Part shown: positions 10,165 to 52,240 of the stretch, in pieces | Layout of the letters: every line of letters starts with the position of its first letter | Numbering within the stretch: the stretch's first letter is position 1 | NCBI GenBank assembly: GCA_041499475.1 | Contig: JBGQKI010000001.1 | Coordinates: forward strand, 67,507 to 131,506 | DNA from: Thermoplasmata archaeon | GTDB taxonomy: Archaea; Thermoplasmatota; DTKX01; DATEUP01 | DNA length: 64,000 nucleotides | Direction of reading: 5' to 3' | Made by a program: the position numbers and the translations under genes | The notes under the pieces: generated by a model | Told to the model about the DNA's origin: nothing | Databases searched by the model: none | What the model saw: the letters and a program-made list of their open reading frames with translations, nothing else

Positions 10165-10803
10165 CTACCCGGTGTTGCCGGGGCCTTCCTCGCCCTCTTC
10201 CTTTTCGAGCACGCGCACGGCGTCGCCGCGCACGGTAATCGGGATCGAGATCATCGCTTCGATGAGCTCAACCGTGATCTCTTCCTTGCCTTCGTCGATC
10301 TGCGTGACGCGGGCCTTCTCGCCCTTGAACGGCCCCTGCGTGATCTCGACTATGTTGCCCTCAACGATGCCCGAAACCAAGGGCTTGGGCTCGAGGAAGT
10401 GCTCGATCTCTTTGATTGGGATCGCCGACTCGGCCGGGTCATCGGAGCCGCGCCGCCGGACCATCCCGCGCGCGCGCTTTACCCCCTTGATGAGGTCGGC
10501 CAGGCGGTCCGGGTTCACCCCTTCGAGGTAGACGTAGCCGCGCATCGGGGCGGGGCAGAGGATCGAGTACACCTCGACCTTCTCCCGCTTCGCCTTGTAC
10601 GCGATGCCGTCGGCCACGGTCTTCTCGTGGCCGATCGAGGTCTTGACAGCGTAGATCGCCGGCGGGAAAACCGGCTCGGCGTCGTCGTATTCGACCTCCT
10701 TCGCTTTGCCCCTGCCGCGCTTGGGCGCTCTTGCCTGCTCGGCGGGCGCATTGGCCTGCGGTTCTCCGGCCGCGGTTTCGGGTTCCTCTTCGGTTTCGGA
10801 CAT
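10165..10803 (-). CDS. spt5: transcription elongation factor Spt5 (archaeal NusG), NGN+KOW, with N-terminal charged extension
   Basis: NGN core AIYAVKTSIGHEKTVADGI...VEVYSILCPAPMRGYVYLEG...VKRARGMV. KOW motif GNIVEITQGPFKGEKARVTQID. GGTGAT SD-like motif 5 nt upstream of the ATG at 10803. Located between secE and rpl11. Confidence 0.92.
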   Translation of the reverse strand: MSETEEEPETAAGEPQANAPAEQARAPKRGRGKAKEVEYDDAEPVFPPAIYAVKTSIGHEKTVADGIAYKAKREKVEVYSILCPAPMRGYVYLEGVNPDRLADLIKGVKRARGMVRRRGSDDPAESAIPIKEIEHFLEPKPLVSGIVEGNIVEITQGPFKGEKARVTQIDEGKEEITVELIEAMISIPITVRGDAVRVLEKEEGEEGPGNTG

Positions 10804-13866: not shown

Positions 13867-13986
13867 ACCCCCCCAAATCCGAACGACGCGCCTCCGAAAA
13901 CTGGATGAGTGATTTTCGCACCGCCAGTCGGAAGTCATTGCCTTAGAGGCAAGAATCGGTGGAGGGCGCTTGGGAACGGTCACCAG

Positions 13987-19472: not shown

Positions 19473-22400
19473 TTACGGCCAAATCGGAACTGCAGGGCTC
19501 GTGATGGGGAAGGTGCCCGAGGGGGTGATCCCGAGCCCGCTCGTGGCGCCGCTCGCCGTGAGGAAAGAGACCGAGGTAAGCTCGACGCCGACGGTCTTGT
19601 AGGCATAGGCCGACGAGGTGACCAGGATGCGGATGATGATGCGTTCGTTGCCGCCCGCGGCGATGTTGAGCAGCGGGCTGCCTGAGAAGGTCACATCGCC
19701 CGACCCGAAGGTCGAGAGTCCAAGCTGGGTGTCGGCGCCGGTCACGTCGTCGTCCTTGTTCACGTCCCACCACGCGGCGACGTTGATCACGGAGCCCGTC
19801 ACGTTTCCGAGCATATGCACCTTGAGGGCTGTGATGCCCACGCCTTCCACGGCCGCTGAAAAGGTGATCCGGATCATTTTGGCAAGGACGTTGTAGTTTA
19901 CATGGTCGCCGTTCTGGTTGATCGTGGCAAGCGAGAGCGTGCCGCGGTCGTAGACCGTGACGGGGGGCGTCTGGTAGATGAGCTGCGTGGGGTTGGTGAT
20001 CCCGACCTGGGTGTTCGGCGTGATCGTCGCGCCCGAATAGATTCCCCGGAATGTCGTGTTGCTCGTGTTCACGCGCGACTCCATCTGGAAGCCTGCGGCG
20101 CTGGGGGCAAAGTCGAACACGAAGAGGATGTTCGTGTCGCCCCCGATGTTCACGCCGTAGGCGGGCGCAAACGCTTTGAGCGCGTCGCTGCCAAACACCC
20201 CGGCATCGGCCGAGCCGATGTCGACGTCGTCGCCCTGGAGGACGGTCGTCGTGTCGTTGTTGGTGTCGCGGTACAGGTGCACGACGACGCCGGCCGGGGG
20301 CACGCCCTGGAGCGAACGCAGGAACACCTCGTCAAAGGTGAGGTTCTCGCCGACAGGCTTCAGCGTGAGCTTGAGCCAGGGCATGAGGTTTGCCGTGGCA
20401 AGCACCGTAGAAGGCGCGAGGTTCGTCCCGAAGATGAGGAGGTCCCCCTGGATGCGCCGGACGCCAAGGGATAGTTGGTAGGGCGCGCGCTCGGGGTCGG
20501 CATAGAGTGTCGAAAGCGAAGTCTTGCCGTACCCGCGCGCTCTAGTATTGTCGTTGAGGTACAGCGAGAATTGCTTGGCCTGCTGGCCCGTGGTGATGTT
20601 CGCGTAGACATCGAGCACCGCCTCCCCGGTGTTCGTCACGTTGATGGTAATCGCGAACAGCTTGCCGGTGACTCCGGCGTCCCAGGTCACCTTGCCGGCG
20701 AAGAAGGTGCCCGAGAGCCAAACGCCTGCGCGCACGCGCACGGTGATGGCCGTATACTGCGCGTCGGTGAGGTTGCCCGTCTGGACGAATTCGAGTTTGT
20801 TGAAGTCGATGTTCTCCCCGTGCGCTCGCAGCTTGAAGGTGTGCAGGTAGATGCCGGTCATCCCCGCGCGCACGGCGGTGGCAAGCCCGGTCTCGTTCCA
20901 CTCGTCGATCGACAGGTTGCCGGCGCTCGTGAGCGTGACCGTCCCCGAGTCGAGGGGGAACGGCTGGCTGGAGATCCCGCTGCGGCCCTTGGACGAAATC
21001 TGGCCCTGGGCAAAGCTCTCGGTGACAGCGGCGATTTGGACGCCCAGCGTCTGGCCGCTGTTGCCGGAGATGTTGAGGTAGACCTCGAGCGGGATCCATC
21101 CGGCGGTGTCGAGGATCTGGAAGCTGACGCTGAAGCGCGCGACGCGCGACGAGTCGAAGTTCTGCGCGGCGGAGATCATCGAACCGTTGATCTTCACGTA
21201 GGCGGAGGCGCTCGAGCGCGGGATCGTGCCGGTAAGGGTGACATTGAACTTCTTGAGGCTGAACGGCTCGCCGGCGGCCCTCACGGTGAATTCGAAGACG
21301 CGCACGTTCTTGGAGCCGGCGATCAGCCGGTCGGGCACGCCGGAGACGGGTTCGAGGCTGAGCTTCGAGCCGACCACGATGTCGGTCGTGGAGAACGGGA
21401 ACGCGCCGGTGGTATTGGCGGCCACCCCGCCGGGGACGCCCGTGCCCCGCACCGAGGAGGTCGCCTGGAGAGTGAAGGTGACGTTGGTGCCGTCGGTGGC
21501 CGAGATGAGGCCCATGACGAGGAAGACGGTGCTGGTGGTGCCGTTCTGCACCGTTGCGATGGGCACTGCAAAGACATTGGCCGAGCCTGCGACGAACCCG
21601 GCATCGGCAGTCACTTCCAGGTCGTCCGAGGGCGAGAAGGCGCCATTGCCGTTCACGTCGAGCCAAGCGGAGAGCGACGCCTGGCTGTCAGGGAGCGACC
21701 CGCTTTTGGTCACGATCAGCTGGCCCACGCTCGTGTCGCCGCCGGTCGAGGTCAAGTTGAGCCGCATGATGGCGACGCCCGACTGCGTCGAGTTGACCGA
21801 AATCGGCGCGACTGAGGCGGCATCGACCGAGAGCGTGGGCCCGCCGCTTGCGCCCATCGCGTCGATGATCAGGGGGAAGCGGTAGGTCGCCGTGCCCCCC
21901 GCGTTGTCTTGAGCCGTGACCGTCACGTAGTAGCTGCCGGCCGGGATCGAGGTGGCCACCACGAGGTCGGGCGACTGGAAGTGCGCGTCGTTGGTGTGGC
22001 TGAGGTTGTAGCGCCCGGCCCCGATCGCGTTCACCTGCAGCGTGGGCCCGGCGGCGACCACGGTGAGGTTCACGAAGACGCCGTTGGTCGCGTCGAGGTT
22101 CCCGTCGGTGTCAATGACGATGGCGTGGACACGGAAGGTCTGGATGCCGTTGCTGGTCACGTGCGCGGTGCCGTCGGAGGCTTGCGCGTAGGCCCAGGTG
22201 ATGATCGGCGGGAAACCGGCCGAGCCGGACTGGTAGCCGGCCTGCAGCTGAGCGAGGTAGAGCACTCTGTTGCTCGCGGTGGAGACGACGGTGACCACCA
22301 CGCGTGTGTCGGGCGAAACGGGCAGCGGGACGCTCGCGCGCCACTCTTTGCCCACCGCGAAGGTGTTCTGGCCGCCGAGGCCCTGCGAAACGTTGTAGGT

Positions 22401-22685
22401 TAGCGTGGTCTGGTTGACGGTGACGAGCACGATCGCGTTGCCCTGGGTGAGGTCCTCGCCGCCGAGGTGTACGATGACAATGTTGACGCTCGTGGGGCCG
22501 GTGCGTTCGATGGAGGCCTGCAGGTCGGCCGAGACGCCGGGGGTCGGCTTGGGCATCCCCTGGACGAGCACGAAGAGGACGGAGAAGGCGGCGACCGTGA
22601 TCGCAAGCAGGATGACCGAACCCACGACCTCGGAGACGGCGTCGCGCCTCGGCCGGAAGGGGGCGCGTGCTCGATGGTCTTCCAT
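19473..22685 (-). CDS. giant (1070 aa) protein with archaeal type IV pilin-like N-terminus and repeated Ig/CARDB-like beta domains
   Basis: The N-terminus MEDHRARAPFRPRRDAVSEVVGSVILLAITVAAFSVLFVLV carries a class III signal motif. The remainder is T/S/V/G/N-rich with many sequons. Confidence 0.8.
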   Translation of the reverse strand: MEDHRARAPFRPRRDAVSEVVGSVILLAITVAAFSVLFVLVQGMPKPTPGVSADLQASIERTGPTSVNIVIVHLGGEDLTQGNAIVLVTVNQTTLTYNVSQGLGGQNTFAVGKEWRASVPLPVSPDTRVVVTVVSTASNRVLYLAQLQAGYQSGSAGFPPIITWAYAQASDGTAHVTSNGIQTFRVHAIVIDTDGNLDATNGVFVNLTVVAAGPTLQVNAIGAGRYNLSHTNDAHFQSPDLVVATSIPAGSYYVTVTAQDNAGGTATYRFPLIIDAMGASGGPTLSVDAASVAPISVNSTQSGVAIMRLNLTSTGGDTSVGQLIVTKSGSLPDSQASLSAWLDVNGNGAFSPSDDLEVTADAGFVAGSANVFAVPIATVQNGTTSTVFLVMGLISATDGTNVTFTLQATSSVRGTGVPGGVAANTTGAFPFSTTDIVVGSKLSLEPVSGVPDRLIAGSKNVRVFEFTVRAAGEPFSLKKFNVTLTGTIPRSSASAYVKINGSMISAAQNFDSSRVARFSVSFQILDTAGWIPLEVYLNISGNSGQTLGVQIAAVTESFAQGQISSKGRSGISSQPFPLDSGTVTLTSAGNLSIDEWNETGLATAVRAGMTGIYLHTFKLRAHGENIDFNKLEFVQTGNLTDAQYTAITVRVRAGVWLSGTFFAGKVTWDAGVTGKLFAITINVTNTGEAVLDVYANITTGQQAKQFSLYLNDNTRARGYGKTSLSTLYADPERAPYQLSLGVRRIQGDLLIFGTNLAPSTVLATANLMPWLKLTLKPVGENLTFDEVFLRSLQGVPPAGVVVHLYRDTNNDTTTVLQGDDVDIGSADAGVFGSDALKAFAPAYGVNIGGDTNILFVFDFAPSAAGFQMESRVNTSNTTFRGIYSGATITPNTQVGITNPTQLIYQTPPVTVYDRGTLSLATINQNGDHVNYNVLAKMIRITFSAAVEGVGITALKVHMLGNVTGSVINVAAWWDVNKDDDVTGADTQLGLSTFGSGDVTFSGSPLLNIAAGGNERIIIRILVTSSAYAYKTVGVELTSVSFLTASGATSGLGITPSGTFPITSPAVPIWP

Positions 22686-23830: not shown

Positions 23831-26650
23831 TTGAAGGCGTGCCGTATCGGCGCGAATGTGGCGGCGACCCCGGCGCTCAAGGGCCACTTCGCAACGCTCC
23901 CAGAGCCGCTGCGGCGGTGGGTCGAGAGCAACGGGTTTACGCAGCCGTCGGCCCCCCAGTCGCTCGCGTTTGCCCCGATCGTCGAGGGCAAGCATGCGCT
24001 CCTCATCGCCCCGACGGGAATGGGCAAGACCGAAGCCGCCCTCTTGCCGCTCTTTGAGCGGATGCTTTCGGCAAAGCCGGTGGGGCACGGGTTCCGCCTC
24101 CTCTACATCACGCCGCTGCGGGCGCTCAACCGCGACATGCTCCGGCGGATGACCTCGCTTGGGGAGCAGACGGGCCTGCGCGTCGGGGTGAGGCACGGGG
24201 ACACCAAGCCGTCGGAGCGCGCGAAGCAGTCGAAAGACCCGCCCCCGGTCCTCATCACGACCCCGGAGAGCCTCCAGCTCCTCTTCACGGGCAAGAACCT
24301 GCGCAGCCACCTGAAGAGCGTCGAGGCGGTGGTCGTCGACGAGGTCCACGAACTTGCCGACGACGAGCGGGGTGCGCAGCTCTCCGTGGCGCTCGAGCGG
24401 CTCGTCGACCTCTCCTCCCGCGAATTCCAGCGGGTCGGGCTGTCGGCAACCGTGGGCGCGCCCGAGGAGGTCGCGGCATTCCTTGGCGGCACCGGCCGCG
24501 AAGTGATCGTCCTTCGCGTCGAGCTGCCCAAGGCCGTGGAAATCGAGGTGCGCGCACCCGTCGTCCCGCCGGAGGGAGACCCGCGCGTGGAGGCGCTGTG
24601 CGAGAGGCTCAAGGTGTCGCCCTCCGTGGTGGCGGCGCTCTTCGAGTGCGCCCGCGAGATCAAGAGCCACGACCAGGTGCTCCTCTTTGTCAACACCCGC
24701 GACACCGCCGAGCTTTTGGCCACACGGCTTGCGATCATCGAGCCGGCCCTTGCTGTGGGCATCCACCACGGCTCGCTGTCGCGCGATGTGCGAATTGAAA
24801 TGGAGAACGAGTTCAAGGCCGGCCGCCTGAAGGCGCTCATCTGCACTTCCTCCCTCGAGCTTGGGATCGATGTCGGCGCGGTCGACTTCGTGATGCAGTA
24901 CAACTCGCCAAGGGAAGTCGCCCGGCTCCTCCAGCGGGTGGGGCGGGCCTCGCACCGCATCGCGGAGACCTCGAGGGGGCTCGTGCTCACCTCGAACTTC
25001 GACGACACCGCCGAAAGCGCCGTCCTTGCCCTCCTTGCGAGCCGGGGCGCGATCGAGCGCAAGGGGGTGCGCGAGCGCCCGCTCGGCGTGCTTGCCAACC
25101 AACTCATCGCGATGGCGAATAGCGAGGGCCGGGTGGAACGCGCCCGGGCGCTTGCAACCGTGCGCCGCGCGTACCCGTTCCGGAACCTCTCCGAGCTCGA
25201 ATTCGACCGCACGCTGGGGCTCGTGGCCGACCTCGGAGCCGTACGCGACATGGGGCAGGCGTTTTCCAAGCGCGGGGGCACGCCGATCTACTTCTTCGAA
25301 AACATTTCGATGATCCCCGACGAACGCACCTACGCGGTGATCGACATCGTGTCGCGCCGCTTCATCGGCACGCTCGACGAGGCGTTCGTGTCGACCTTCG
25401 ACGAAGAGAATTCCAAGTTCATCGTGAAGGGCCGGTCGTGGAGGGTCGCGGAGGTCGGCGAAGATTCGGTGCTCGTCGAGCCCTCGGACGACTTGGGCGC
25501 GGTCCCGTCTTGGATCGGGGAAGATATCCCCGTCCCCTTCGAAGTCGCGCAAGGCGTCGGGGCCGCGCGCCGCGCGGGCGCGCTTGAAGGGCCCGGGCCC
25601 TCGAAGGACGCCAAGGCCCTATTCGCCGCCACCGTGGCCGAGCAGCGGGGGCGCGGGCTCGCCGTCCCGGACGACACGACCATCGCCCTCGAGCGCGAGG
25701 AGCGCACGGTGGTGCTCAACGCCTGCTTTGGGACCCGGGTCAACGAGACGCTGGGGCGCGCGCTCACGAGCCTGCTGACCCAGCGGCTGGGCGCCTCCGT
25801 CGGGCTCTTCGTCGACCCCTACCGGGTCGTGCTCACCCTCCCGCGCGTAGTGACGGAGCGCGAGGTCGAGGCGCTGTTGCGCAGCCTGCCTCCCGAAGGG
25901 CTCGAAGAATTCATGCGGCTGGTGCTGCGCACTTCGACGCTGCTCAAGTGGAACCTGCTGCACTCGGCCAAAAAATTCGGGGCGCTGCGCAAGGGGGCCG
26001 ACCACCGGTTCGTCTCGGCCAAGGCGATGCTCGAGCGCTTCAGGAGCACGCCGCTGGTCGACGACGCCATCGACCGCGCGCTGCACGACCGGCTGGATGT
26101 GGACGGCACCGAGAAGGTCCTTGCAGCCCTGCGCGCCGGGGCGATCACCGTCGTGCACCAGGGGCTCTCGCCGATCGGGCTTGCCGGCGGGCAGCGCATG
26201 CGCGAACTGGTGGCGCCCCAGCGGCCGGACGGCGCGATCCTTGCGGCCCTTCGAAGGCGCCTCGAAGACACGCGGGTCCTGTTGGTGTGCATGGCGTGCC
26301 ACAAGGCCCGCACGGTGACGGTGAGGGAATCGAAGCCGGAGGACGGCTGCCCGTACTGCAGGGGCAAGATGCTCGCGCTCCTGCACCCGCGTGAGCGCGA
26401 GGCCGTCTCGCTCCTTACGAGGAAGCCCCGTTCGCCCGCCGAGCAGAAGCGCCGGCGCCAGCTTTCCACGAGCGCTAGCCTCGTGGCTTGGCACGGGCAC
26501 CGCGCTGTCCTTGCCCTGGCCGCGCGCGGCGTGGGCCCCGACACCGCGGGCCGGATTCTGACCAAGCAACAGGAGTCGGATGAGGAGTTGCTGAAGGACA
26601 TCCTGGCCGCGGAGGTCCTCTACGCGCGGACCCGGCGGTTCTGGGGCTGA
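23831..26650 (+). CDS. lhr: Lhr-type (large helicase-related) ATP-dependent DEAD/DEAH-box helicase
   Basis: Motif I APTGMGKTEAA, YITPLRALNRDM, motif II DEVHELADDERG, and helicase C segment ICTSSLELGIDVGAVDFVMQYNSPREVARLLQRVGRASH. C-terminal Cys4 CMACHK...CPYCRGK. TTG start at 23831, with GTG 23858 as an alternative. Confidence 0.88.
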   Translation: MKACRIGANVAATPALKGHFATLPEPLRRWVESNGFTQPSAPQSLAFAPIVEGKHALLIAPTGMGKTEAALLPLFERMLSAKPVGHGFRLLYITPLRALNRDMLRRMTSLGEQTGLRVGVRHGDTKPSERAKQSKDPPPVLITTPESLQLLFTGKNLRSHLKSVEAVVVDEVHELADDERGAQLSVALERLVDLSSREFQRVGLSATVGAPEEVAAFLGGTGREVIVLRVELPKAVEIEVRAPVVPPEGDPRVEALCERLKVSPSVVAALFECAREIKSHDQVLLFVNTRDTAELLATRLAIIEPALAVGIHHGSLSRDVRIEMENEFKAGRLKALICTSSLELGIDVGAVDFVMQYNSPREVARLLQRVGRASHRIAETSRGLVLTSNFDDTAESAVLALLASRGAIERKGVRERPLGVLANQLIAMANSEGRVERARALATVRRAYPFRNLSELEFDRTLGLVADLGAVRDMGQAFSKRGGTPIYFFENISMIPDERTYAVIDIVSRRFIGTLDEAFVSTFDEENSKFIVKGRSWRVAEVGEDSVLVEPSDDLGAVPSWIGEDIPVPFEVAQGVGAARRAGALEGPGPSKDAKALFAATVAEQRGRGLAVPDDTTIALEREERTVVLNACFGTRVNETLGRALTSLLTQRLGASVGLFVDPYRVVLTLPRVVTEREVEALLRSLPPEGLEEFMRLVLRTSTLLKWNLLHSAKKFGALRKGADHRFVSAKAMLERFRSTPLVDDAIDRALHDRLDVDGTEKVLAALRAGAITVVHQGLSPIGLAGGQRMRELVAPQRPDGAILAALRRRLEDTRVLLVCMACHKARTVTVRESKPEDGCPYCRGKMLALLHPREREAVSLLTRKPRSPAEQKRRRQLSTSASLVAWHGHRAVLALAARGVGPDTAGRILTKQQESDEELLKDILAAEVLYARTRRFWG

Positions 26651-26703
26651 GCGCCCGTGCGATTCTCGCGCCGCGCCATCGATCACCGCCGTTTCAGAAA
26701 TGC

Positions 26704-26710
26704 TTAATAC
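26704..26710 (+). promoter_or_regulatory. TATA-box candidate for the HerA-like gene (near-leaderless)
   Basis: GCTTAATACGCG is centred about 30 nt upstream of the ATG at 26737. A similar TAATACGCG occurs upstream of the KaiC-like gene (42798-42804, minus). Confidence 0.4.
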
Positions 26711-26736
26711 GCGTCGAGGGCCAATGGCGCCTCGGG

Positions 26737-28206
26737 ATGGCACTCAAACCTATCGGCGCCGTTTTTGGCACCGTCGGTTCGGCCGCGTTTCGCATCGCGG
26801 TCTCCGACGCGGCGCTGCGCCGCAACGACTACGTGAAGGTCGAGCACCCCTCCTGCGGGTGGGTGCTCGGCCAGGTGGTCGACCTCCAGCGCGAGTCGGA
26901 CGTGAGTTACGAGAAGGCGTCGAGGATGCTCTCGGGCGAGCAGGTCACCGTCCAGGAAAAGATCATCGCCTCCATCCAGATGGCTGGGTACCGCGATGAG
27001 CGCGGGATCCTCCAGCAGCCCGAGACGCCCCTGCCGGCCGGCTCGCTCATCTTCCGCGCCGACGCGGACATCATCAAGAATGTCCTCGGGCTCGACCGCA
27101 AGGTGAAGGGCGGCGCCTACATCGGGCTCCTCAAGGGGCACCCCGACATCAAGGTCCTGCTCGACCTCAACACAATCGCTTCGTCGCACGTCTCGATCCT
27201 TGCAAAGACGGGCGGCGGGAAGAGCTACACGGTCGGCGTCTTCCTCGAAGAGATGATCAAGCGCGGGGTGCCCGCCGTGGTGGTCGACCCGCACGGCGAG
27301 TACGCGTCGCTCATGCACCCGAACAACTCGGAGCGCGACCAGGCGCTGATGGACACCTTCGATGTGAAGCCGCGGGGCTATGCGGACCACGTCGTAGAGT
27401 TCTCGCCCGACCGCAAGCTCAACCCGCAGGCGCTGCAGTTCGCATTCGACTCGGTGAACCTCACCATCGAAGACCTCGCCGAGTTCACGGGGATCCCCTT
27501 CTCGGGCCCGCAGATCACGGCCCTCGACACGATCATGAAGGACCTCAAGAAGGACACGCCGTTCTACACGCTTCGCAACCTGATCGACGCGATCAAGGCG
27601 TCGAGCTCGCCCGCGCGGTGGAGCCTGGTCGCGCCGCTCGAGCAGCTCGACTCGATGGGCCTCTTCTCGAAGAACCCCACGAAGATCTCCGACCTCGTGA
27701 AGCACAGCCAGGTCTCGATCGTGAACCTGAAGGGCGTGCCCCCCGAGGTGGGGGAGATGATTGTCGCGCGCCTGTGCACCAAGCTCTTCGACGCGCGCAA
27801 GATCGACAAGATCCCGGCGCTGATGCTCGTGATGGAGGAGGCGCACAACTTCTGCCCGCAGATCGGGGTGGCCAAGTCGACGAGCATCCTCAAGACGATC
27901 GCGGCGGAGGGCCGCAAGTTCGGCCTTGGCCTCTGCGTCGTGTCGCAGCGGCCGGCGAAGGTCGACAAGAACATCCTGTCGCAGTGCCACACGCAGATCA
28001 TCCTGAAGGTGACGAACCCGAACGACCTCAAGGCGATCTCGCAGTCCGTGGAGGGCCTCACCGAGGGGATGATGGAAGAGGTGCGCGAACTCGCCATCGG
28101 CGAGGCGCTCATCACGGGGGGCGCCGTCGCCGCGCCGATTGTGGTGAAGACGCGCGTTCGAGAGACCAAGCACGGCGGCGGAAGTGTGCAGGTCGTCCGG
28201 AGCTGA
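26737..28206 (+). CDS. HerA-like / DUF87 AAA ATPase (HAS-barrel + FtsK-HerA type P-loop)
   Basis: Walker A ILAKTGGGKSYTVG, Walker B ALMLVMEEAHNF, and VVSQRPAKVDKNILSQCHTQIILKVTNPNDL. N-terminal barrel-like segment GTVGSAAFRIAVSD...DYVKVEH. Confidence 0.85.
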   Translation: MALKPIGAVFGTVGSAAFRIAVSDAALRRNDYVKVEHPSCGWVLGQVVDLQRESDVSYEKASRMLSGEQVTVQEKIIASIQMAGYRDERGILQQPETPLPAGSLIFRADADIIKNVLGLDRKVKGGAYIGLLKGHPDIKVLLDLNTIASSHVSILAKTGGGKSYTVGVFLEEMIKRGVPAVVVDPHGEYASLMHPNNSERDQALMDTFDVKPRGYADHVVEFSPDRKLNPQALQFAFDSVNLTIEDLAEFTGIPFSGPQITALDTIMKDLKKDTPFYTLRNLIDAIKASSSPARWSLVAPLEQLDSMGLFSKNPTKISDLVKHSQVSIVNLKGVPPEVGEMIVARLCTKLFDARKIDKIPALMLVMEEAHNFCPQIGVAKSTSILKTIAAEGRKFGLGLCVVSQRPAKVDKNILSQCHTQIILKVTNPNDLKAISQSVEGLTEGMMEEVRELAIGEALITGGAVAAPIVVKTRVRETKHGGGSVQVVRS

Positions 28207-28213
28207 GGCAAGG

Positions 28214-28531
28214 GTGCCCGGAAGAAGCGCCGCGCGCAAGCGCGTGACCGTTACCCCCGAGCACCTGGAGCGTTACCTCGCGCTCACGGGGCGGGCCCTC
28301 AAGACCGTCAAGGTCGCGCCGCCCGCGCGCTCGCACCACAGGCGGCTCGCCGAGGACTTCCTGGGGATGGCCAAGGCCTACGAGGCCGACGCGCGCCACT
28401 TCCGTGACAAGGGGGACTTCGTCAACGCGCTCTCGTGCATCAACTACGCCCACGGGTGGCTCGATGCTGGCGCAAGGCTCGGCCTCTTCGATGTCGGCGG
28501 GGACGACCAGCTCTTCACGCTGGCCGATTAG
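28214..28531 (+). CDS. DUF357-family protein
   Basis: ...AEDFLGMAKAYEADARHFRDKGDFVNALSCINYAHGWLDAGARLGLFDV matches the DUF357 signature (Y-x-x-G-W-L-D-A). The GTG at 28214 is preceded by GAGG. The track start at 28184 overlaps the herA-like stop. Confidence 0.65.
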   Translation: MPGRSAARKRVTVTPEHLERYLALTGRALKTVKVAPPARSHHRRLAEDFLGMAKAYEADARHFRDKGDFVNALSCINYAHGWLDAGARLGLFDVGGDDQLFTLAD

Positions 28532-28534
28532 TCG

Positions 28535-28981
28535 CTACTTCGAGGCCACCGTCGCGCGCCGCAGCGCGTACCCGAGCGGGCACGGGATGACCTCGCCAAC
28601 ATGCAGCACCTTGTACGAATGGCCGATCCGCAGCGGCGCGCCCACGCAGTCCCCCCAGAATTGGCAGCCCCGATATTCGCACGAGCGCTCCGGGTAGAGC
28701 AAGGACTCCCCTTCGACCGTCCCTCGCGAGGGCAGGATCACCTCGTGCTGCGCGCGCTCGACCTCGACGACGCGCACGCGCCCCGACTCGTGGAGGAAGC
28801 ACGGGTGGTCCTTGTCGCGCACCGCGACGACTTCGTAGGACTCGCCGGGCTCAAGGGCAAAGCAGGTGCCCTTTAGCCGGCACGGCGTACACAAAGCCTC
28901 GGGGCCCTCGTTCGGGCCCTCGAAGCGAAACCTTTCCCCAACTTTGGCTTGCAGTTCTCCCAGAAGTGTGATCGTTGCCAT
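28535..28981 (-). CDS. UPF0179-family protein (Cys-rich, archaea-specific)
   Basis: MATITLLGELQAKVGERFRFEGP...CTPCRLKGTCFALEPGESYEVVAVRDKDHPCFLHE...VVEV. GGGAGGCGG SD 8 nt upstream. Confidence 0.7.
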   Translation of the reverse strand: MATITLLGELQAKVGERFRFEGPNEGPEALCTPCRLKGTCFALEPGESYEVVAVRDKDHPCFLHESGRVRVVEVERAQHEVILPSRGTVEGESLLYPERSCEYRGCQFWGDCVGAPLRIGHSYKVLHVGEVIPCPLGYALRRATVASK

Positions 28982-29008: not shown

Positions 29009-30100
29009 TCACGCCGAGACCCCCGTCAATTCCATGAGGCGCTCGGCCGCCTCCGCCGTTATGCCCTGGTCGCCGAGGATCGTGTAGCGGTCGGGACGGA
29101 TCCGGTGGGCCGTCGTGAGCGCCTCGACCATCTGCTCTTTGGTGATGCCAAGCTGGCGGATCGTGACGGGGGCACCCACCTTCTCGAGCGCCGTGCGGAT
29201 CTTCTTCCACTCCCCGCCGTGGAGCGCCATCATCATGATTGTGCCCACGCCGCACTGCTCGCCGTGGAGCGCTTTGCCGGGCGCGATGGCATCGAGCGCG
29301 TGGGAGATCAGGTGCTCCGAGCCCGACGCCGGCCTCGACGAGCCGGCGATGGCCATCGACACGCCCGAGACGATGATGGGGCGCACGATCATCCATGCGC
29401 TCTCTTCGAGGTTGCGCTTGAGGAACTCCGACTCGCCGATGATGGCGTCGGCGCTCATCTCGGAGATCGTCGCGGCCGACGAGGAGAATTCCTCGTTGCG
29501 AAGGCGGTGCGCGAGGCGCCAGTCGAGGATGGCCGTCTTGTTGGAGATCACGTCCGCGCAGCCGGCGGCGAGGAACCGCCAGGGCGACTTGATGAGCACG
29601 GCGGTGTCCGCGAGCACCCCGAGCGGCACCTGCGCGTCGAACGACTTGATCTTGCCATCCACCTTGATCGTCGCGCGCGGGGAGGCGACTCCGTCGTGGG
29701 CGCAGCTCGTGGGGATGGAGATGAATGGGATGGAGAGGTCGCTTGCCGCGAGCTTGGCGATGTCGATCTTCGTGCCCCCGCCAACGCCCACGAGGAAGGT
29801 CGCCTTCGACTCGCCCGCGATCTCCTTCACATCGGCAACGCTCTGGGCGGTGGCGTCGCCCGCTTCGTAGGTCTGCAGGTCGTAGCCGGCGTCGGAGAGG
29901 GACTGCGCGACCGCGTCGCCTGCAAGGGGGCGGGTGTGCGGGCCCCAGACGATCACGCCCGTCCCTTTGAGGCCGAAGTCGCGCGCCATCTGCGCCACCT
30001 GGGGGAGCACGCCGTGGCCCGCGACAATCTCGCGCGGCAGCTGCATCCCTCGGGTCTTCTTGAAGGACGGGTTCACGCCGCGCCATCTGGACGAGGACAC
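29009..30100 (-). CDS. egsA: NAD(P)-dependent glycerol-1-phosphate dehydrogenase
   Basis: LPREIVAGHGVL..., VGVGGGTKIDIAKLAA, PTSCAHDGVASP, SGSEHLISHALD. This is the archaeal lipid-backbone enzyme family. GTG at 30100; the internal ATG at 30046 (MQLPREIV) is an alternative start. Confidence 0.88.
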   Translation of the reverse strand: MSSSRWRGVNPSFKKTRGMQLPREIVAGHGVLPQVAQMARDFGLKGTGVIVWGPHTRPLAGDAVAQSLSDAGYDLQTYEAGDATAQSVADVKEIAGESKATFLVGVGGGTKIDIAKLAASDLSIPFISIPTSCAHDGVASPRATIKVDGKIKSFDAQVPLGVLADTAVLIKSPWRFLAAGCADVISNKTAILDWRLAHRLRNEEFSSSAATISEMSADAIIGESEFLKRNLEESAWMIVRPIIVSGVSMAIAGSSRPASGSEHLISHALDAIAPGKALHGEQCGVGTIMMMALHGGEWKKIRTALEKVGAPVTIRQLGITKEQMVEALTTAHRIRPDRYTILGDQGITAEAAERLMELTGVSA

Positions 30101-30195
30101 TTTACCCTTTCGGACGGCAGGCGACGGTGAAGCACGAGGGCTCCCGGCGAAAGGATTAACGTGGGGTACCCGGCTCCTCGCAGCGGGCGCGGGCT

Positions 30196-31884
30196 GTGAG
30201 CGGACCGAACGGCGATGCCCCTCAGTCCGCGGGCGACAAACCGCCGCCGAAGATTTTTGCCGTTCGCGCGACGGAAGGCTTCGAGCAAGAAGTCGCCGAG
30301 GGAATTCGGGAGCGCGCGGCCAAGGAACGGGTCGAGGTCCGCAGCGTGGTGGTGCCGGCCGAGCCCTCGGGCACGGTCTTCGTGGAGGCCGACGACCTCA
30401 ACCGGCTCAGCAACCTCGTGGCCGTCGTAAAGCACGCGCGCGGTGTCGCGCCGGAAGCCGCCGCCTCCATGGCCTCGATCGGCGGCCCGTTTGGCGCAGG
30501 CGGCGCGGAGGGCGTTGCAAGACAGGCAGCGGCGGCGAGGCCTGCACCCGCCAAGGTTGTCGAGGCGGAGGCGGAAACACAGGGGCCCAAGAATGGGGCG
30601 GCGCCCAGGGCCGGCCGAGACGGAGCAGCGGCGGCCGATGCCGAGGAGGGCGGGGCGCGCAAGCCGCTTGGCGCCGAGCTGCCCCCCGTAAGCGAGCGCA
30701 CCGGTCGGCTCCTCAACGTCGCGATGCTCCTGCCCGTGGCGATCGTCGCCGTCGGGCTGCTCGTCGCGCCCCGGATTTTCTGGGACGGGTTCCTCTACCC
30801 ATACTTCTGGCGCTCGATCGAAGCCGACGCCAACAATGTGGGCGGTCCGGCCGAGGCTTACAATGTCGTGGACACCCTGTCGTATGCGCTCATCCTCGTC
30901 CCTGCGGTCATTCTGATTTACCGCGTGCTCGAACGGCTCAAGATCAAAGTCGACGCCCGCTTCCTCCTCATGCTGACGCCTTTCCTCATCCTTGGCGGCG
31001 CGGCGCGCGCCCTCGAGGACGCCCAGTACTTCGGCAAGCCCCTCACTTTCGCGTTCATCTCGCCGATCATCTACGTCGCCGAGGGCCTGCTTGTTGTCCT
31101 GCTTGTTGTCTCGTCGTGGTGGGTGGTGCGCGAGCAAAAGGACCACGGGCCGGCCAGGGGCGCGCTCGCCTGGAGCGCCGCCTTTGCGCCGGGCGCCGCC
31201 ACGCTCCTCTACTTCCAAGCCGTCGACACGCGCTTTGTTGCCGCGCCGATCCCCCTGCCGATCCTCCTCAGCGCACTGGCCTGCGCGTACCTTGCGGGCC
31301 TCGTGCTCGTCAGCCGCGCGAAGGCCGGCGAGGTGCACGGCTTCGTCCTCATCGCCGGCTTGCTGCTCCTTGCGCTCACGGCCTACCTCATCGCGCGCTG
31401 GACCGCCCTCGGGGGCTGGTGGCCCCTGCCTGCTTCACCGGTCGCCACCCGTGCCGGCGAAGTGGGCGCCATCGTGGGGCTCGCCACACTTGCGACCGCG
31501 CTTACCCTCGCCGGGATCTACTTCGCGTCGTGGCGCTTCGAGCGCCTCGCCCTCTTGCTCACGCCGATCAACGTCCTCGTCTTCTTTGGCCAGTTCCTCG
31601 ACGGCGCGGCGACGTTTTGGGGCATCGACATGTTCCACTATGAAGAAAAACACGTCCTGCCCGGCTTCCTCATCCAGCACACGGGCACCGCCGCGGTGAT
31701 GTTCCCCCTCAAGCTGGGGTTCGTCTTGGTCGTCCTGCTCGTGACGGATGTGGTTTACCGCAACGACCTCTACGATGAGGAGGGGCACATGAGTTCGTTC
31801 GCAGGCCTGCTCAAACTCACCGTGGCCGCGCTCGGCATGGGCCCGGGCACGCGCGACATGCTGCGTCTAGCTATGGGCGTCTGA
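30196..31884 (+). CDS. fusion protein: Spt5/NusG NGN-like domain + low-complexity linker + DUF63 polytopic membrane domain
   Basis: Residues about 17-85 (KIFAVRATEGFEQEVAEGIRERAAKERVEVRSVVVPAEPSGTVFVEADDLNRLSNLVAVVKHARGV) align ungapped with the Spt5 NGN at 10165-10803. An A/G/P-rich linker follows. The body has multiple TM helices with DUF63-like FHYEEKHVLPGF and a C-terminal GPGTRDMLRL. Confidence 0.8.
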   Translation: MSGPNGDAPQSAGDKPPPKIFAVRATEGFEQEVAEGIRERAAKERVEVRSVVVPAEPSGTVFVEADDLNRLSNLVAVVKHARGVAPEAAASMASIGGPFGAGGAEGVARQAAAARPAPAKVVEAEAETQGPKNGAAPRAGRDGAAAADAEEGGARKPLGAELPPVSERTGRLLNVAMLLPVAIVAVGLLVAPRIFWDGFLYPYFWRSIEADANNVGGPAEAYNVVDTLSYALILVPAVILIYRVLERLKIKVDARFLLMLTPFLILGGAARALEDAQYFGKPLTFAFISPIIYVAEGLLVVLLVVSSWWVVREQKDHGPARGALAWSAAFAPGAATLLYFQAVDTRFVAAPIPLPILLSALACAYLAGLVLVSRAKAGEVHGFVLIAGLLLLALTAYLIARWTALGGWWPLPASPVATRAGEVGAIVGLATLATALTLAGIYFASWRFERLALLLTPINVLVFFGQFLDGAATFWGIDMFHYEEKHVLPGFLIQHTGTAAVMFPLKLGFVLVVLLVTDVVYRNDLYDEEGHMSSFAGLLKLTVAALGMGPGTRDMLRLAMGV

Positions 31885-32824
31885 GCCTGCGTGCCCAGAC
31901 TGCGGCGACCGCGGCAATGCCCGTTGCGCCAACCGCTGCTGCGCCTTCAAACCCAGGGAGGAAGCCTTTTCCGGAGGGCGTTACGGCGGGGGGCGGCCCG
32001 GTGCTCGTGCCCTGGTCGGGCGGAGTCGCCGAGAAGTGTTTCAAGGCCGAGGCGGCGACCGTCAGCCCCTTTGCGGCCGCGCCCGTCGAGAGCGCGACGA
32101 TTGAGAGGGTGAAGTTCCCCTCGGTGACGCTCGTAGGGACGCTCACGTTGCCGTTCACGTTCGCCGTAACTTTCGCCGCAACGGAAACCGGCGAAGGCAG
32201 GTACACGCTAATCCCGCGGGACTGGAGCTCGGCGAGGTTGTCAAGGTGCAGCTCGAAGGAGTCGCGCCCGTTGCCGAGGTTCTGCAGGCGGAAGGCAAAT
32301 GGCGTGTCTTTGCCGGCCTGCGCCGTGAAGTTCTCGTTGCTCGTCGAGGTGCGCGGGGTGATATCGAGTCCGAAATACTGCAAGACGGGCAGCGCCGTCT
32401 CTCCCCAGAACAGTTTTCCAAATCCCGGCGGGACCGAGACGTTTGCCTGCACGGAGATCACCGCGTTTGCGTCGACCGCGGAGCGACCCGGAACGGAAAC
32501 GCTCACCGTGAAAGGCACATCGCCCGAGCCATTGAGCGACGAGGTCATCGGGCTGATGGTGGCGGGCCAATAGGAGTTGTTGATCGTCACATTGAGGTAG
32601 ATGTGGGTGCCGACCGTGGCCCACGAGGGCAGGGTCACGTTGACCGTGCCGTTTGCAACGACCGCGGTCTCGTTGTCCTTGTCAACGTCGACGGCGGCGA
32701 CCGGGTTGACGGTGACGCGTACCTGGGGGACTACGGGCGGGGAGGGCGCCGCCCCCGCGACCGGTACTGCGGCGGTGGCTCCGAGCAGGAGCACCACAGC
32801 CAGGCCGACGAGTTTGGCCTTCAT
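31871..32824 (-). CDS. secreted cell-surface (S-layer/CARDB-like) glycoprotein with PGF-CTERM sorting signal
   Basis: Signal peptide MKAKLVGLAVVLLLGATAAVPVAGA. C-terminus GKGFLPGFEGAAAVGATGIAAVAAVWARRLRRP (PGF motif + TM + basic tail). Many sequons. Confidence 0.8.
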   Translation of the reverse strand: MKAKLVGLAVVLLLGATAAVPVAGAAPSPPVVPQVRVTVNPVAAVDVDKDNETAVVANGTVNVTLPSWATVGTHIYLNVTINNSYWPATISPMTSSLNGSGDVPFTVSVSVPGRSAVDANAVISVQANVSVPPGFGKLFWGETALPVLQYFGLDITPRTSTSNENFTAQAGKDTPFAFRLQNLGNGRDSFELHLDNLAELQSRGISVYLPSPVSVAAKVTANVNGNVSVPTSVTEGNFTLSIVALSTGAAAKGLTVAASALKHFSATPPDQGTSTGPPPAVTPSGKGFLPGFEGAAAVGATGIAAVAAVWARRLRRP

Positions 32825-51800: not shown

Positions 51801-52240
51801 ACGCCACGTTTGAAACTCGGTCGTACATCGTCGCCAACCCGTTTGTCGATGTGGTGCCCACCGTCGACTTCCTCACGCCTTCGTCCGGGTCGTACCTGCG
51901 CGGGACTGTGACGCTCGCGGGGTCGGTCAGCGACCCCGACACGCCGGTCGCCACGGTCGAGTACCGCATTGGCCAAGGGCCGTGGACGGCGGCGACGATC
52001 CAGGGGACTACCTGGACCGCGACGCTCGACACCGCCGGGCTCCCCGACGGCCCGGTGATCATCGAGCTGCGCGCCTTCGACGGCTACAACTACAGCAGTT
52101 CCTCGTTCGTAACGGTGAATGTCGACAATGGCGTGGTCGCCGAAGCGGGCCTGCCGCTCGAAACGCTCGCCCTTGCGGTCTTGGCCCTCGCGGCCGTCGC
52201 GGGAATTGCGTTCGTCCTGCTGAAGCGCAGGCGCGCCTAA
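48839..52240 (+). CDS. giant (1133 aa) surface protein: signal peptide, beta-propeller-like repeats, three PKD-like domains, Ig-like domains, C-terminal TM anchor
   Basis: Signal peptide MSKARPLVALGLLGLMLSALTPVGAAPG. Repeats of the type LYGVAWSDDSQSALAVGWNGALV. PKD-like DASSSYDLDGDPITTTWW, SYDPNPTDTLSYRWTLDG and FDNDSAWLTYVWLVDG. C-terminus LALAVLALAAVAGIAFVLLKRRRA. Confidence 0.85.
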   Translation: MSKARPLVALGLLGLMLSALTPVGAAPGQGAPAPTSIEPLSFSLPFVYRTMEGLQTNLISPSPTYDHLHDVAWAPDGHMALAVGSHNTLVAFDPAGPSARILRNGTLGNLYGVAWSDDSQSALAVGWNGALVTYTSLGVQDLPSQGFTEWHAAAFVPGSGFLVVGLGGAMFFLNGTTRTPVSSPTTNDLLGVAYNPVLGRALAVGRAGTAVEVSPTGTASLVASPVADDLRSVGFESDTGKGLVAGGAGVLLSYLGGALANETHNATDGGYYDISVSRSGEPAVVAIRNGSVGSLLFTNASYSNWLTGRISLGGVEAVARAPSQGYVLATGFFGVFVLAYQNGTLTNFSNPYRPTLTDASWRSTGDLALLVGFNGTVILFNRTSNMTNAVPVPSVNASLRGVSWAANGSEAIIVGGSTLWRYDAASGNVSEPIGPTALDLYGVAFRPGATEAVVVGSAGFVGVWNGSSLLRVSSTSITQGIFTVRWHLDAGGSGDYAYAAGANIAARFDPPNAVSTVTRIGSFFGVGFIGDDVWLAGNAHQIQRYDSSNGIWDNLSLPSALSTVRFTRAVPLPSGEGLLLVGNQSFSGYLNLTRMLRFDTGFLADFNGVEFNPVTREPLLFGAFSLAFDMREGTFPNLAPFVVLSSPTNGTNWTSADTITFDASSSYDLDGDPITTTWWDNITGYLTAAPSFATQLPAGLHTVTVFVDDGRGHNVSASVNLFVAVAQYAPVPVIGSPSASSNYSDDDNITFSGATSYDPNPTDTLSYRWTLDGSEVLANSSIVVTKLRTGTHVVTLNVTDQTRLSAEATVVLVIHQGDAPPFPTVVSPQESGSYASNIPILFDSTGTFDNDSAWLTYVWLVDGAEIGRLPIMNATQPAGAHTVTLQVSDGAKTSQIVVNIQVGGPVDLPPKFLSINPPNGTVLVGTVVFNGTVEADPQGPVRFIRFSINGGNLETAAGSSSSWSATVDTTLLPNGTIIVTFQAIDNAHATFETRSYIVANPFVDVVPTVDFLTPSSGSYLRGTVTLAGSVSDPDTPVATVEYRIGQGPWTAATIQGTTWTATLDTAGLPDGPVIIELRAFDGYNYSSSSFVTVNVDNGVVAEAGLPLETLALAVLALAAVAGIAFVLLKRRRA

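Follow-up and report, generated by a model that had tools for sequence, protein, structure and literature searches.

An NGN–AliA fusion protein in a narrow clade of Thermoplasmata: a Spt5-derived NGN domain on a candidate archaeal lipoprotein-lipidation enzyme

To our knowledge, Spt5/NusG is the only transcription factor common to all life, and the paralogues of it that we know of are all soluble and all still act on RNA polymerase (RNAP). A gene of a Thermoplasmata archaeon raises the question of what a Spt5-type NGN domain does on a polytopic membrane protein. The gene was analysed within a window, the whole stretch of 64,000 nucleotides from contig JBGQKI010000001.1 (positions 67,507 to 131,506), and its features and those of the relevant window genes are listed in Table 1. 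The initial annotation, made from the sequence letters, had described an NGN domain, a low-complexity linker and a polytopic body with no KOW domain; Pfam and AlphaFold2 (AF2) showed that this description was correct. It had also taken the arrangement to be a new one, and no mention of an NGN-AliA architecture was found in the literature searched, including the papers on AliA, the enzyme to which the body is related (Hong et al., Nat Commun 2025, PMC12462473; JBC 2026, PMC13631571). The NGN-AliA fusion is a conserved, undescribed architecture.

Table 1. Features of the fusion gene, its neighbours and the canonical spt5 gene (positions are those of the window; res, residues)
Feature	Position	Strand	Details and evidence
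NGN-linker-AliA fusion gene	30196..31884	+	562 aa, GTG start, stop 31882-31884; ORF list, Pfam PF03439 and PF01889
Variable N-terminal tail, res 1-18	30196..30249	+	pLDDT <50; closest-homologue identity 33%, dN/dS ~1
Spt5-derived NGN core, res 19-85, β1-α1-β2-β3-α2-β4, without α3	30250..30450	+	Pfam, AF2, Foldseek
Disordered Ala/Gly/Pro-rich linker, res 86-166	30451..30693	+	pLDDT <50; 58% A+G+P
AliA-type PF01889 (ex-DUF63) membrane body, ~11 helices, res 167-562	30694..31881	+	PF01889, AF2
EgsA, NAD(P)-dependent glycerol-1-phosphate dehydrogenase	29009..30100	-	NF002022 477.5 bits (cut-off 413); divergent
95-bp divergent intergenic region, EgsA gene/fusion gene	30101..30195	.	Same arrangement upstream of stand-alone aliA of other archaea
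Secreted 'choice-of-anchor T' protein, PGF-CTERM-like tail	31871..32824	-	NF041740 88.1 bits (cut-off 70)
Canonical Spt5 (NGN+KOW), secE-spt5-L11-L1 cluster	10165..10803	-	TIGR00405 158 bits (cut-off 70); Pfam NGN and KOW

The fusion of NGN to AliA is genuine. The ORF ran through 562 codons without interruption, and codon-position GC was coding-like in all segments (GC3: NGN, 0.84; linker, 0.77; body, 0.87). A protein with 99.8% identity to the window protein (P0001) was found, and the same two domains occurred in 18 further protein clusters (51-83% identity), giving about 19 clusters in total, which shared their gene order across independent assemblies. An artefact, whether a chimera made during assembly or a pair of genes run together by a frameshift or an overlooked stop, has a virtually nil probability as an explanation. 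The low-complexity, GC-rich linker is of a kind that is error-prone for assemblies and gene callers; however, the same fusion was present in JGI, ENA, Logan and NCBI assemblies on contigs of up to 134 kb, the linkers of homologues varied in length with the frame preserved, and synteny was conserved. The independent assemblies thus excluded the chimera, stop or frameshift that the initial annotation had named as a possible source of error.

All fusion clusters fell within one 50%-identity cluster, and the fusion was found in 4 of 185,579 GTDB species, which showed that it was restricted to one narrow clade. One aliA locus was found in each of the four GTDB fusion genomes (DATEUP01, JBGPNV01, JBGPJF01 and CBEUCC01) among 80 listed loci of 99 relatives, and no second PF01889 gene was found within the window; the fusion is probably the sole aliA copy of its genomes.

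Pfam analysis of the fusion protein revealed the Spt5-NGN domain PF03439 at residues 19-87, with 47.1 bits (cut-off 22.4; E 2e-12) over profile positions 1-73 of 84, and PF01889 with 200.8 bits (cut-off 25), with no match to KOW (PF00467). The initial annotation had aligned the domain without gaps to the window Spt5 and counted 29 of 68 identical residues by hand; the computed alignment of residues 17-84 with residues 47-114 of Spt5 gave 30/68 (44%; E 3e-14). AF2 predicted a β-α-β-β-α-β fold for residues 19-85 (pLDDT 80-89). The top Foldseek matches in the PDB were all Spt5/NusG NGN domains (3lpe_A, rmsd 1.3 Å over 68 residues; 3ewg, TM 0.84), the rmsd to solved NGN domains was 1.1-1.3 Å, and a PDB profile search also matched 3lpe (E 5e-14). 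The HMM and fold predictions that had been proposed as a check on the domain therefore bore it out, by a significant Pfam match and an NGN fold in AF2 and Foldseek. The TIGR00405 model gave 30 bits on the fusion protein (cut-off 69.95) and covered profile positions 1-66 only. The LoaP, UpxY and NusG models of NCBIfam had no match to the fusion protein and weak matches to the window Spt5. When proteins were searched by a word index with a profile of the fusions' NGN alone, the search returned only canonical Spt5 proteins (NGN+KOW) of 145-167 aa and missed the fusion proteins themselves; it is therefore uninformative on other NGN-X fusions.

The initial annotation had called the domain a paralogue of the Spt5 encoded in the same window, and this was right, that protein being a bona fide Spt5 by TIGR00405 and Pfam. 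In the fusion protein P0005, the first 123 residues aligned with residues 48-170 of the window Spt5 at 48% identity (E 2e-35), across an 'RGSDDPAxS' insert and a 'GPFKGEKxRV' segment. The window Spt5 carries the lineage-specific insert 'RRRGSDDPAES', which is common to the fusion proteins, whereas 112 of 116 other archaeal Spt5 proteins had short spacing and lacked the full insert. The insert common to the fusions and the lineage's Spt5 shows direct descent, and the alignments showed that the fused NGN was copied from the resident spt5 by duplication. The Spt5-like segment 'RGSDDPAxSxIPxxxLxxFL' persisted in P0003, P0004, P0005, P0006, P0008 and P0011, and a KOW relic 'GPF(K/R)' in P0004, P0005 and P0011 (in P0005, 'GPFKGEKRRV'). 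The linker, described earlier as rich in Ala, Gly and Pro and about 90 residues long, has the composition claimed (Table 1) and appears to be the decayed remnant of NGN helix α3, the NGN-KOW linker and the KOW domain. A tblastn search of 76 loci found no NGN-coding ORF beside stand-alone aliA as a precursor of fusion by adjacency. The spt5 duplicate may have inserted between the divergent genes egsA and aliA and then have been fused in frame to aliA, after which the KOW domain and helix α3 would have decayed to an 80-residue disordered tether and the β-α-β-β-α-β core would have been retained.

For the membrane body, the initial annotation had given DUF63 as a family of unknown function, which is outdated. 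PF01889, formerly DUF63, is now AliA_AliB in Pfam, an archaeal lipoprotein-lipidation family. Hong et al. (2025, PMC12462473) showed that lipobox proteins depend on its Haloferax members for their thioether-archaeol lipidation. The body of the window protein was identical at 34 of the 35 family-conserved positions (at least 80% in 92 stand-alone representatives) and kept the conserved polar residues R271, E274, D275, D469, Y482, E484, K485, H486, K506, R553, D554 and R557. The family hallmarks that had been quoted earlier were thereby found to be conserved family-wide (Y482, E484, K485, H486, G551, R553, D554 and R557). Position 271 was Arg in the window protein and in 86 of the 92 representatives, and His in 6. 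The AliA type has two pocket Arg residues, and the AliB type, with His, occurs in Halobacteria only (PMC12462473); the host is a Thermoplasmata archaeon, and Arg271 of its protein may be one of the two diagnostic Arg residues of the AliA type. A profile search of the family aligned stand-alone members to residues ~170-562 of the fusion. The 1215 matches of an exhaustive search are not a clean family size, as they may include Spt5 proteins that match the NGN part only. No extra N-terminal domain was found among the other PF01889 members listed, and none of the ten unusually long PF01889 proteins scanned with Pfam had an NGN or any other extra domain.

The topology was derived by taking the AF2 helices as spans and assuming a cytoplasmic N-terminus. 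The loops then carried 10 Lys+Arg facing the cytoplasm and 6 facing outwards, and the invariant polar residues all lay on the outside half. The cytoplasmic N-terminus that had been expected is supported by the positive-inside rule and by the grouping of all the conserved polar residues on the other side of the membrane. By these simple topology rules the NGN is predicted to lie on the cytoplasmic side, and the putative active-site residues would lie on the extracytoplasmic side.

The gene neighbourhood was conserved. The EgsA gene stood beside the fusion in eleven loci (L001-L010 and L087), and at least 18 further loci had it next to a stand-alone aliA; a linkage of arCOG02177 to 'GldA' has been reported (PMC12462473). 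The choice-of-anchor T gene, convergent with the fusion gene and overlapping its 3' end by 14 bp, was present in all fusion loci, and the protein sequence ends '...GFLPGFEGAAAVGATGIAAVAAVWARRLRRP'. A search of the window genes for lipobox proteins gave no credible candidate, which carries no information on the rest of the genome; two lipobox-like matches lay in antisense frames.

The dN/dS ratio was 0.07 in the body, 0.12 in the NGN core, 0.62 in the linker and about 1 in the N-terminal tail, which showed purifying selection on both the NGN core and the enzyme body. Across 12 full-length NGN sequences, 20 positions were invariant. Residues E44, D67, R70, N73 and H80 (window numbering) were fixed in the fusions and not in canonical Spt5, and residues fixed only in the fusions suggest new constraints. 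These data bear on the possibility that the NGN is an evolutionary leftover, a functionless appendage heading for loss, while AliA works as elsewhere in archaea. Decay of KOW, α3 and many Spt5-specific sites would be expected of such a remnant, as would its restriction to one narrow clade and the lack of an N-terminal domain in any other listed family member; nevertheless we regard it as improbable, given the contrast in dN/dS of the core with the linker and tail, the invariant and newly fixed positions, and the presence of the NGN in every member of the clade though the bodies have diverged to 51% identity. A 'D-F-D-R-L-T-N-L' helix, considered as a brand-new surface, was dropped as a candidate; lineage-matched Spt5 proteins have 'N-P-D-R-L-x-(E/D)-L' there, and only D67, F/L68, T/S72 and N73 are newly fixed within this motif.

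The initial annotation had proposed that the tethered NGN still binds the clamp coiled-coil of RNAP, either coupling transcription to the membrane in a transertion-like manner or competing with canonical Spt5 and sequestering RNAP. The residues of the domain do not support RNAP clamped at the membrane here, and this reading is rather unlikely. The RNAP-pocket Tyr (MjSpt5 Tyr42-equivalent) was present in 116 of 121 lineage-matched Spt5 proteins and in 7 of 18 fusions; it is Thr60 in the window protein, and the non-Tyr fusions (11/18) had T, I, V, L, Q, R, A, H or F. At least four separate losses of the Tyr occurred, alongside those of α3 and the KOW relic, and these repeated losses indicate that RNAP binding is not what maintains the NGN. 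Half of the near-invariant NGN-core sites of canonical Spt5 (10/20) were no longer conserved in the fusions, which kept 0 of 8 canonical conserved sites in α3 and the linker and 1 of 36 in KOW, and the conserved basic residues equivalent to Spt5 R88 and K106 were lost. In gel shifts, a Y42A change left MjSpt4/5 unable to bind RNAP; however, when elongation was assayed by a sensitive method, MjSpt5 Y42A retained 60% of the wild-type activity (PMC2896526), so that a Thr need not remove all RNAP affinity. Several further observations favour RNAP tethering. The NGN fold is intact and under purifying selection, and the 80-residue flexible linker would give it reach. The Ala4-equivalent of the RNAP pocket, a hydrophobic Leu44-equivalent (Phe62 in the window protein) and the H-x-R-G motif, at positions reported to contact upstream DNA in Pfu, were invariant in all fusions. 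In addition, the Tyr is ancestral and was retained in the seven members despite long divergence. These invariant residues, the equally invariant Glu46-equivalent of the Spt4 contact and the retained Tyr count against a repurposed domain. That the NGN of the Tyr-bearing members, and possibly of all members, still engages the RNAP clamp or Spt4 is hardly probable; if true, elongation complexes or the Spt4 pool would be physically linked to a lipid-anchoring membrane enzyme. Docking of Spt4 itself, with the NGN recruiting or sequestering this zinc-ribbon protein at the membrane and modulating the available Spt4/5, is quite improbable. In MjSpt4/5, Glu46 of Spt5 hydrogen-bonds Spt4 Ser39 and helix α3 contributes to the interface. 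The equivalent Glu (Glu64 in the window protein) was invariant in 18/18 fusions, and edge strand β2 and helix α1 are present; however, every NGN domain examined had this Glu, which may have a structural role, α3 is absent from the window protein and from most non-Tyr members, and no Spt4 gene was found in the window or beside the fusion at any locus.

The explanation that we consider moderately probable is an AliA enzyme carrying a cytoplasmic NGN from an spt5 duplicate, with the NGN repurposed and not an RNAP clamp-binder. The gene would encode the AliA-type lipoprotein-lipidation enzyme of the lineage, a candidate prolipoprotein archaeol transferase of the outer membrane face, and the fusion protein would still perform the housekeeping role of AliA. 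Its NGN core, tethered at the cytoplasmic face, may have been repurposed as a module that binds proteins or regulates. An RNAP clamp-binding elongation factor is disfavoured by the Thr in place of the pocket Tyr, by the missing basic surface residues and by the loss of both α3 and KOW. A recruited protein-protein module, which the initial annotation had offered as its fallback, fits better since the NGN is under purifying selection; a repurposed binding module is what elimination would leave.

RfaH, LoaP, UpxY and others are specialised bacterial NusG duplicates that took on lineage-specific roles while the housekeeping copy stayed; they are soluble, keep KOW and act on RNAP. The fusion protein likewise derives from a duplicate of the elongation factor, with the housekeeping spt5 retained, but lacks KOW and is membrane-bound. 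Compared with archaeal Spt5 (M. jannaschii 3LPE; P. furiosus 3P8B, 3QQC and 8OKI), it has the NGN fold and sequence in common, but it is without KOW and α3, has Thr for the pocket Tyr and has changed half of the near-invariant NGN sites; its NGN is membrane-anchored and its gene lies outside the ribosomal-protein cluster. An NGN that is separated from KOW, held at the membrane and maintained by selection is unlike the known Spt5/NusG paralogues.

On the enzyme side, the body is a full-length PF01889 domain, like those of H. volcanii AliA (HVO_2859, arCOG02177) and AliB (HVO_2611), with the conserved residues given above, and the divergent linkage to glycerol-1-phosphate dehydrogenase is in common with AliA (arCOG02177, PMC12462473). 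Among the listed representatives, only the fusion has a 166-residue, predicted cytoplasmic NGN extension. Lipidation activity has been demonstrated for the Haloferax AliA/AliB proteins alone (PMC12462473). The bacterial prolipoprotein diacylglyceryl transferase Lgt is the proposed functional analogue of AliA; it is a polytopic enzyme with conserved Arg residues and attaches lipid to the lipobox Cys at the outer face, and the HHpred probability for AliA and Lgt is only 29% (PMC12462473). Foldseek found no structural match for the membrane body, Lgt included. Unlike the fusion, Lgt has no transcription-factor-derived domain. The lipidation role of AliA was discovered only in 2025, and the fusion hints that the enzyme may have a cytoplasmic partner or regulatory input.

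In ToxR, CadC and the transertion concept, a cytoplasmic domain of the gene-expression machinery is held at the membrane. The folds of ToxR and CadC are unrelated to those of the NGN-AliA protein, and the likeness is in concept only. The significance of the fusion is limited by its narrow, uncultured clade and by the residue evidence that disfavours RNAP tethering. The family nevertheless offers a natural test of the roles open to an NGN fold after its RNAP-binding constraints relax, and it holds graded intermediates, from members with the Tyr, α3 and the KOW relic to members that have lost all three.

The fusion gene comprised 562 codons with a GTG start and an uninterrupted frame, and its codon-position G+C was coding-like in every segment (window G+C 67%). 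Pfam analysis of the product revealed PF03439 (Spt5-NGN) at residues 19–87 with 47.1 bits (cut-off 22.4) and PF01889 with 200.8 bits (cut-off 25), and gave no match to a KOW domain. BLASTP against the canonical Spt5 of the window gave 30/68 identities without gaps (E 3e-14). No NGN beyond these two proteins and no second PF01889 gene were found in the window. The initial annotation had described an NGN domain without KOW joined to a DUF63 (PF01889) membrane protein, and at sequence level it was right in every detail. An AlphaFold2 model (19 homologues as input; mean pLDDT 71.9) showed a beta-alpha-beta-beta-alpha-beta domain at residues 19–85 (pLDDT 80–89), an unstructured segment at 89–163 (pLDDT below 50) and, between 167 and 559, some eleven long helices. 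In Foldseek, all 33 best PDB matches were NGN domains of Spt5 or NusG (3lpe_A, rmsd 1.3 Å over 68 residues; 3ewg, TM 0.84; also 3qqc_D and 8oki_G), bearing out the NGN fold of the N-terminus; the membrane part had no match.

Table. Coordinates of the fusion gene and other features of the window
Feature	Position	Strand	Remarks
Very large ORF	812-6541	-	1909 aa
Canonical spt5	10165..10803	-	TIGR00405 158 bits; NGN plus KOW; directly upstream of L11 and L1 ribosomal-protein genes
Very large ORF	13909-18555	+	1548 aa; several CxxC zinc-ribbon-like motifs at end, after a transmembrane segment (17548-17643, 18478-18540)
Very large ORF	19473-22685	-	1070 aa; homologue at fusion locus L001 carries Pilin_N
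Conserved block	23831-28981		Lhr-type helicase (939 aa), HerA-like ATPase (DUF87, 489 aa), DUF357, UPF0179; directly upstream of the G1P dehydrogenase gene; identical order at all fusion loci (L001-L006, L087)
Glycerol-1-phosphate (G1P) dehydrogenase	29009..30100	-	NF002022 477.5 bits (cut-off 413); divergent, upstream of fusion
NGN-PF01889 fusion	30196..31884	+	562 aa
Choice-of-anchor T family protein	31871-32824	-	NF041740, 88 bits; convergent neighbour of fusion
Very large ORF	48839-52240	+	1133 aa; signal peptide

A search of 5.8 billion proteins revealed P0001, a protein 99.8% identical to the window protein, and 18 more clusters of 51–83% identity. P0001 was labelled by JGI as [quoted passage not shown]; both halves had already been picked up by this automatic annotation. 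Nearly all fusion clusters, from JGI, ENA, Logan and NCBI assemblies, carried both PF03439 and PF01889, and the absence of the first NGN residues in a few homologues looks like late start-codon calls. The gene order was the same across fusion loci on contigs up to 134 kb: Lhr helicase, HerA, DUF357, UPF0179, G1P dehydrogenase (-), fusion (+), a secreted protein of 300–320 aa (-) and grpE-dnaK-dnaJ. With independent assemblies carrying the fusion in this order, the probability of an artefact is practically negligible. When 1.84 billion representatives at 50% identity were searched exhaustively by HMM, P0005 was the only one of the 150 best matches that spanned both domains; the others began at profile position about 170–190 and were therefore stand-alone membrane proteins. 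Ten unusually long PF01889 proteins had no additional Pfam domain. Among 185,579 GTDB species, the fusion was present in 4 (one genome each; loci L007-L010), all Thermoplasmata or Thermoplasmatota MAGs; the next relatives shared 35–37% identity and aligned only to residues about 170–562. The fusion is real, conserved and limited to one narrow clade.

PF01889 is named AliA_AliB in the gene tables. Hong et al. (Nat Commun 2025, PMC12462473) used co-occurrence with predicted lipoproteins to select arCOG02177 (AliA) together with arCOG02178 (AliB), its paralogue in halobacteria. Lipoprotein maturation in Haloferax volcanii needs both aliA and aliB, and the diphytanylglyceryl thioether was gone from lipoprotein extracts of the double mutant (PMC12462473). 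The divergent pair of G1P dehydrogenase and PF01889 genes seen in the window recurred where aliA stands alone in Thermoplasmata, Halobacteriales and Methanosarcinales. This divergent egsA-aliA pair occurred in at least 18 fetched loci, including L012, L017, L019, L025, L049, L051 and L054. The egsA-aliA linkage reported by Hong et al. is thus independently confirmed, and the arrangement suggests a shared bidirectional promoter region joining lipid-backbone synthesis and protein lipidation.

Alignment with 92 stand-alone family representatives showed that the window protein had the consensus residue at 34 of 35 positions conserved at ≥80%, including R271, E274, D275, D469, Y482, E484, K485, H486, K506, R553, D554 and R557. 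The R271 position was His in 6/92 representatives. AliB carries histidine in place of two arginines that sit in the AliA pocket (PMC12462473). The six His-bearing proteins (P0180, P0230, P0256, P0272, P0282 and P0286) tended to be longer (443–512 aa) and could be of AliB type or form another subfamily. Within the 80 loci listed of 99 relatives, a single aliA locus was seen for each of the four GTDB genomes. Because of the conserved residues, the G1P dehydrogenase pair, a dN/dS of 0.07 against the closest homologue gene (L087) and the single locus, the body is most likely the working AliA of these organisms, and probably their only copy. The fusion agreed with the AliA/AliB family in every feature that could be tested.

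For topology, AlphaFold2 helices were taken as membrane spans and the N-terminus was assumed to be cytoplasmic. Under this rule, the loops contained 10 Lys+Arg on the cytoplasmic side vs 6 outside, a gap that grew when charged helix ends were included. The family-invariant polar residues (D211, R271/E274/D275, D469, Y482-H486, K506, R553-R557) all lay in outer helix halves or outer loops, the expected active-site side for an enzyme acting on a translocated lipobox cysteine. No signal peptide preceded the NGN. These simple rules predict a cytoplasmic NGN carried on a flexible tether of 80 residues, as the initial annotation had presupposed.

As to the origin of the NGN, the N-terminal 123 residues of P0005 matched residues 48–170 of the window's Spt5 with 48% identity (E 2e-35). 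The alignment passed through an insertion, R-x-RGSDDPA-x-S-x-IP, and reached GPFKGEK-x-RV, the first KOW strand. The spacing from H-x-R-G to GPFKG was 34 residues in 112/116 other archaeal Spt5, 43 in the window's Spt5 and 41 in P0005, and only a minority of 121 Thermoplasmatota Spt5 had the full insert. Because this lineage-specific insert is common to both, the fused module is a duplicate of the lineage's own spt5, and the paralogy proposed earlier held. The two genes coexist with certainty in the window, and very probably on the JGI contig of P0002, another fusion, since its closest Spt5, P0288, was on a contig also of 25,449 bp. No NGN-coding ORF lay beside stand-alone aliA in 76 other loci; therefore, the spt5 copy apparently entered the egsA-aliA interval first and fused afterwards. 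The window's Spt5 was unusually long (212 aa): its N-terminus carried a charged extension (about 45 residues), and NGN strand beta4 was followed by an RRRGSDDPAES insert. Numerous other Spt5 of Thermoplasmata (among P0288-P0407) measured about 300–360 aa, vs about 150–165 aa in most archaea.

Against L087, dN/dS was 0.12 in the NGN core, 0.62 in the linker and about 1 in the N-terminal tail; the NGN domain is therefore maintained by selection. Site conservation was then examined in 18 fusions relative to 121 canonical Spt5 matched by lineage. Of the sites ≥95% conserved in the canonical set, the fusions kept 10 of 20 in the NGN core, 0 of 8 in alpha3 and the inter-domain linker, and 1 of 36 in KOW. 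GGPFGAGG in the linker of the window protein and P0002 may be the sole echo of the KOW motif. Basic R88 and K106 of canonical Spt5 were lost, and N97 to D, R110 to H, E at position 74 and N at position 103 were newly fixed. In M. jannaschii Spt5, Ala4, Tyr42 and Leu44 line the RNAP-binding pocket, and A4R and Y42A abolished RNAP binding in gel shifts (Hirtreiter et al., PMC2896526). The Ala4 equivalent was invariant across fusions and that of Leu44 still hydrophobic; the pocket Tyr was present in 7/18 fusions vs 116/121 canonical Spt5, and was Thr60 in the window protein. In a neighbour-joining tree of enzyme bodies, every major subclade held Tyr-bearing members with non-Tyr members (T; I/V/L; Q/R; F/A/H) nested beside them, so Tyr was ancestral and lost at least four times. 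Each time, alpha3 and the KOW relic disappeared with it. The most reduced forms were the window protein and P0002 (Thr, no alpha3), the NGN match in the former ending at profile position 73 of 84. Lacking KOW and the pocket Tyr, the fusion would not belong functionally to the Spt5/NusG elongation factors, only its domain being derived from them; specialised NusG paralogue models did not match it.

The fusion is best read as an AliA enzyme whose Spt5-derived NGN domain has probably been exapted. It would lipidate lipobox proteins as AliA does, with the NGN core serving as a binding or regulatory module, a reading that we consider reasonably probable. The initial annotation had named anchoring or sequestration of RNAP at the membrane first. 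The H-x-R-G motif and part of the pocket persist, as does Tyr in some fusions, and Thr may leave some affinity, given that the elongation assay still showed 60% of wild-type activity for Y42A (PMC2896526). However, the domain was always kept while its RNAP-binding determinant was repeatedly lost and alpha3 and KOW decayed; RNAP binding is thus not what keeps the NGN in the family as a whole, and tethering or sequestration of RNAP is unlikely.

The same decay bears on docking to Spt4. Glu46 of M. jannaschii Spt5 makes a conserved hydrogen bond to Spt4 Ser39 and its equivalent is invariant in the fusions, but alpha3 is gone, making this very unlikely. That the NGN is a functionless leftover is quite unlikely, being contradicted by its dN/dS. 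The same purifying selection fits the initial annotation's fallback, a putative protein-protein module. The fusions offer an unusual architecture and a graded natural series of NGN decay, within a narrow uncultured clade and with RNAP tethering disfavoured. The architecture is undescribed in the literature searched: the AliA papers mention no NGN, Spt5, NusG or fusion, full-text literature on NGN with transmembrane segments or paralogues gave nothing relevant, and two reviews or analyses of how NusG/Spt5 evolved are silent on any membrane-anchored version.

With its Sec-type signal peptide, numerous N-x-S/T sequons and a tail resembling PGF-CTERM (PGFEG...AVWARRLRRP), the choice-of-anchor T product is likely to be an archaeosortase substrate. 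Every fusion locus carried its gene, as did, weakly, L012, the nearest stand-alone aliA locus; the pairing of a C-terminally lipid-anchored family with an enzyme for N-terminal lipidation may go beyond synteny. The four very large ORFs probably encode surface or adhesion proteins. The 3' end of the choice-of-anchor T gene overlapped the fusion gene by 14 bp, as in fusion loci L001 and L004.
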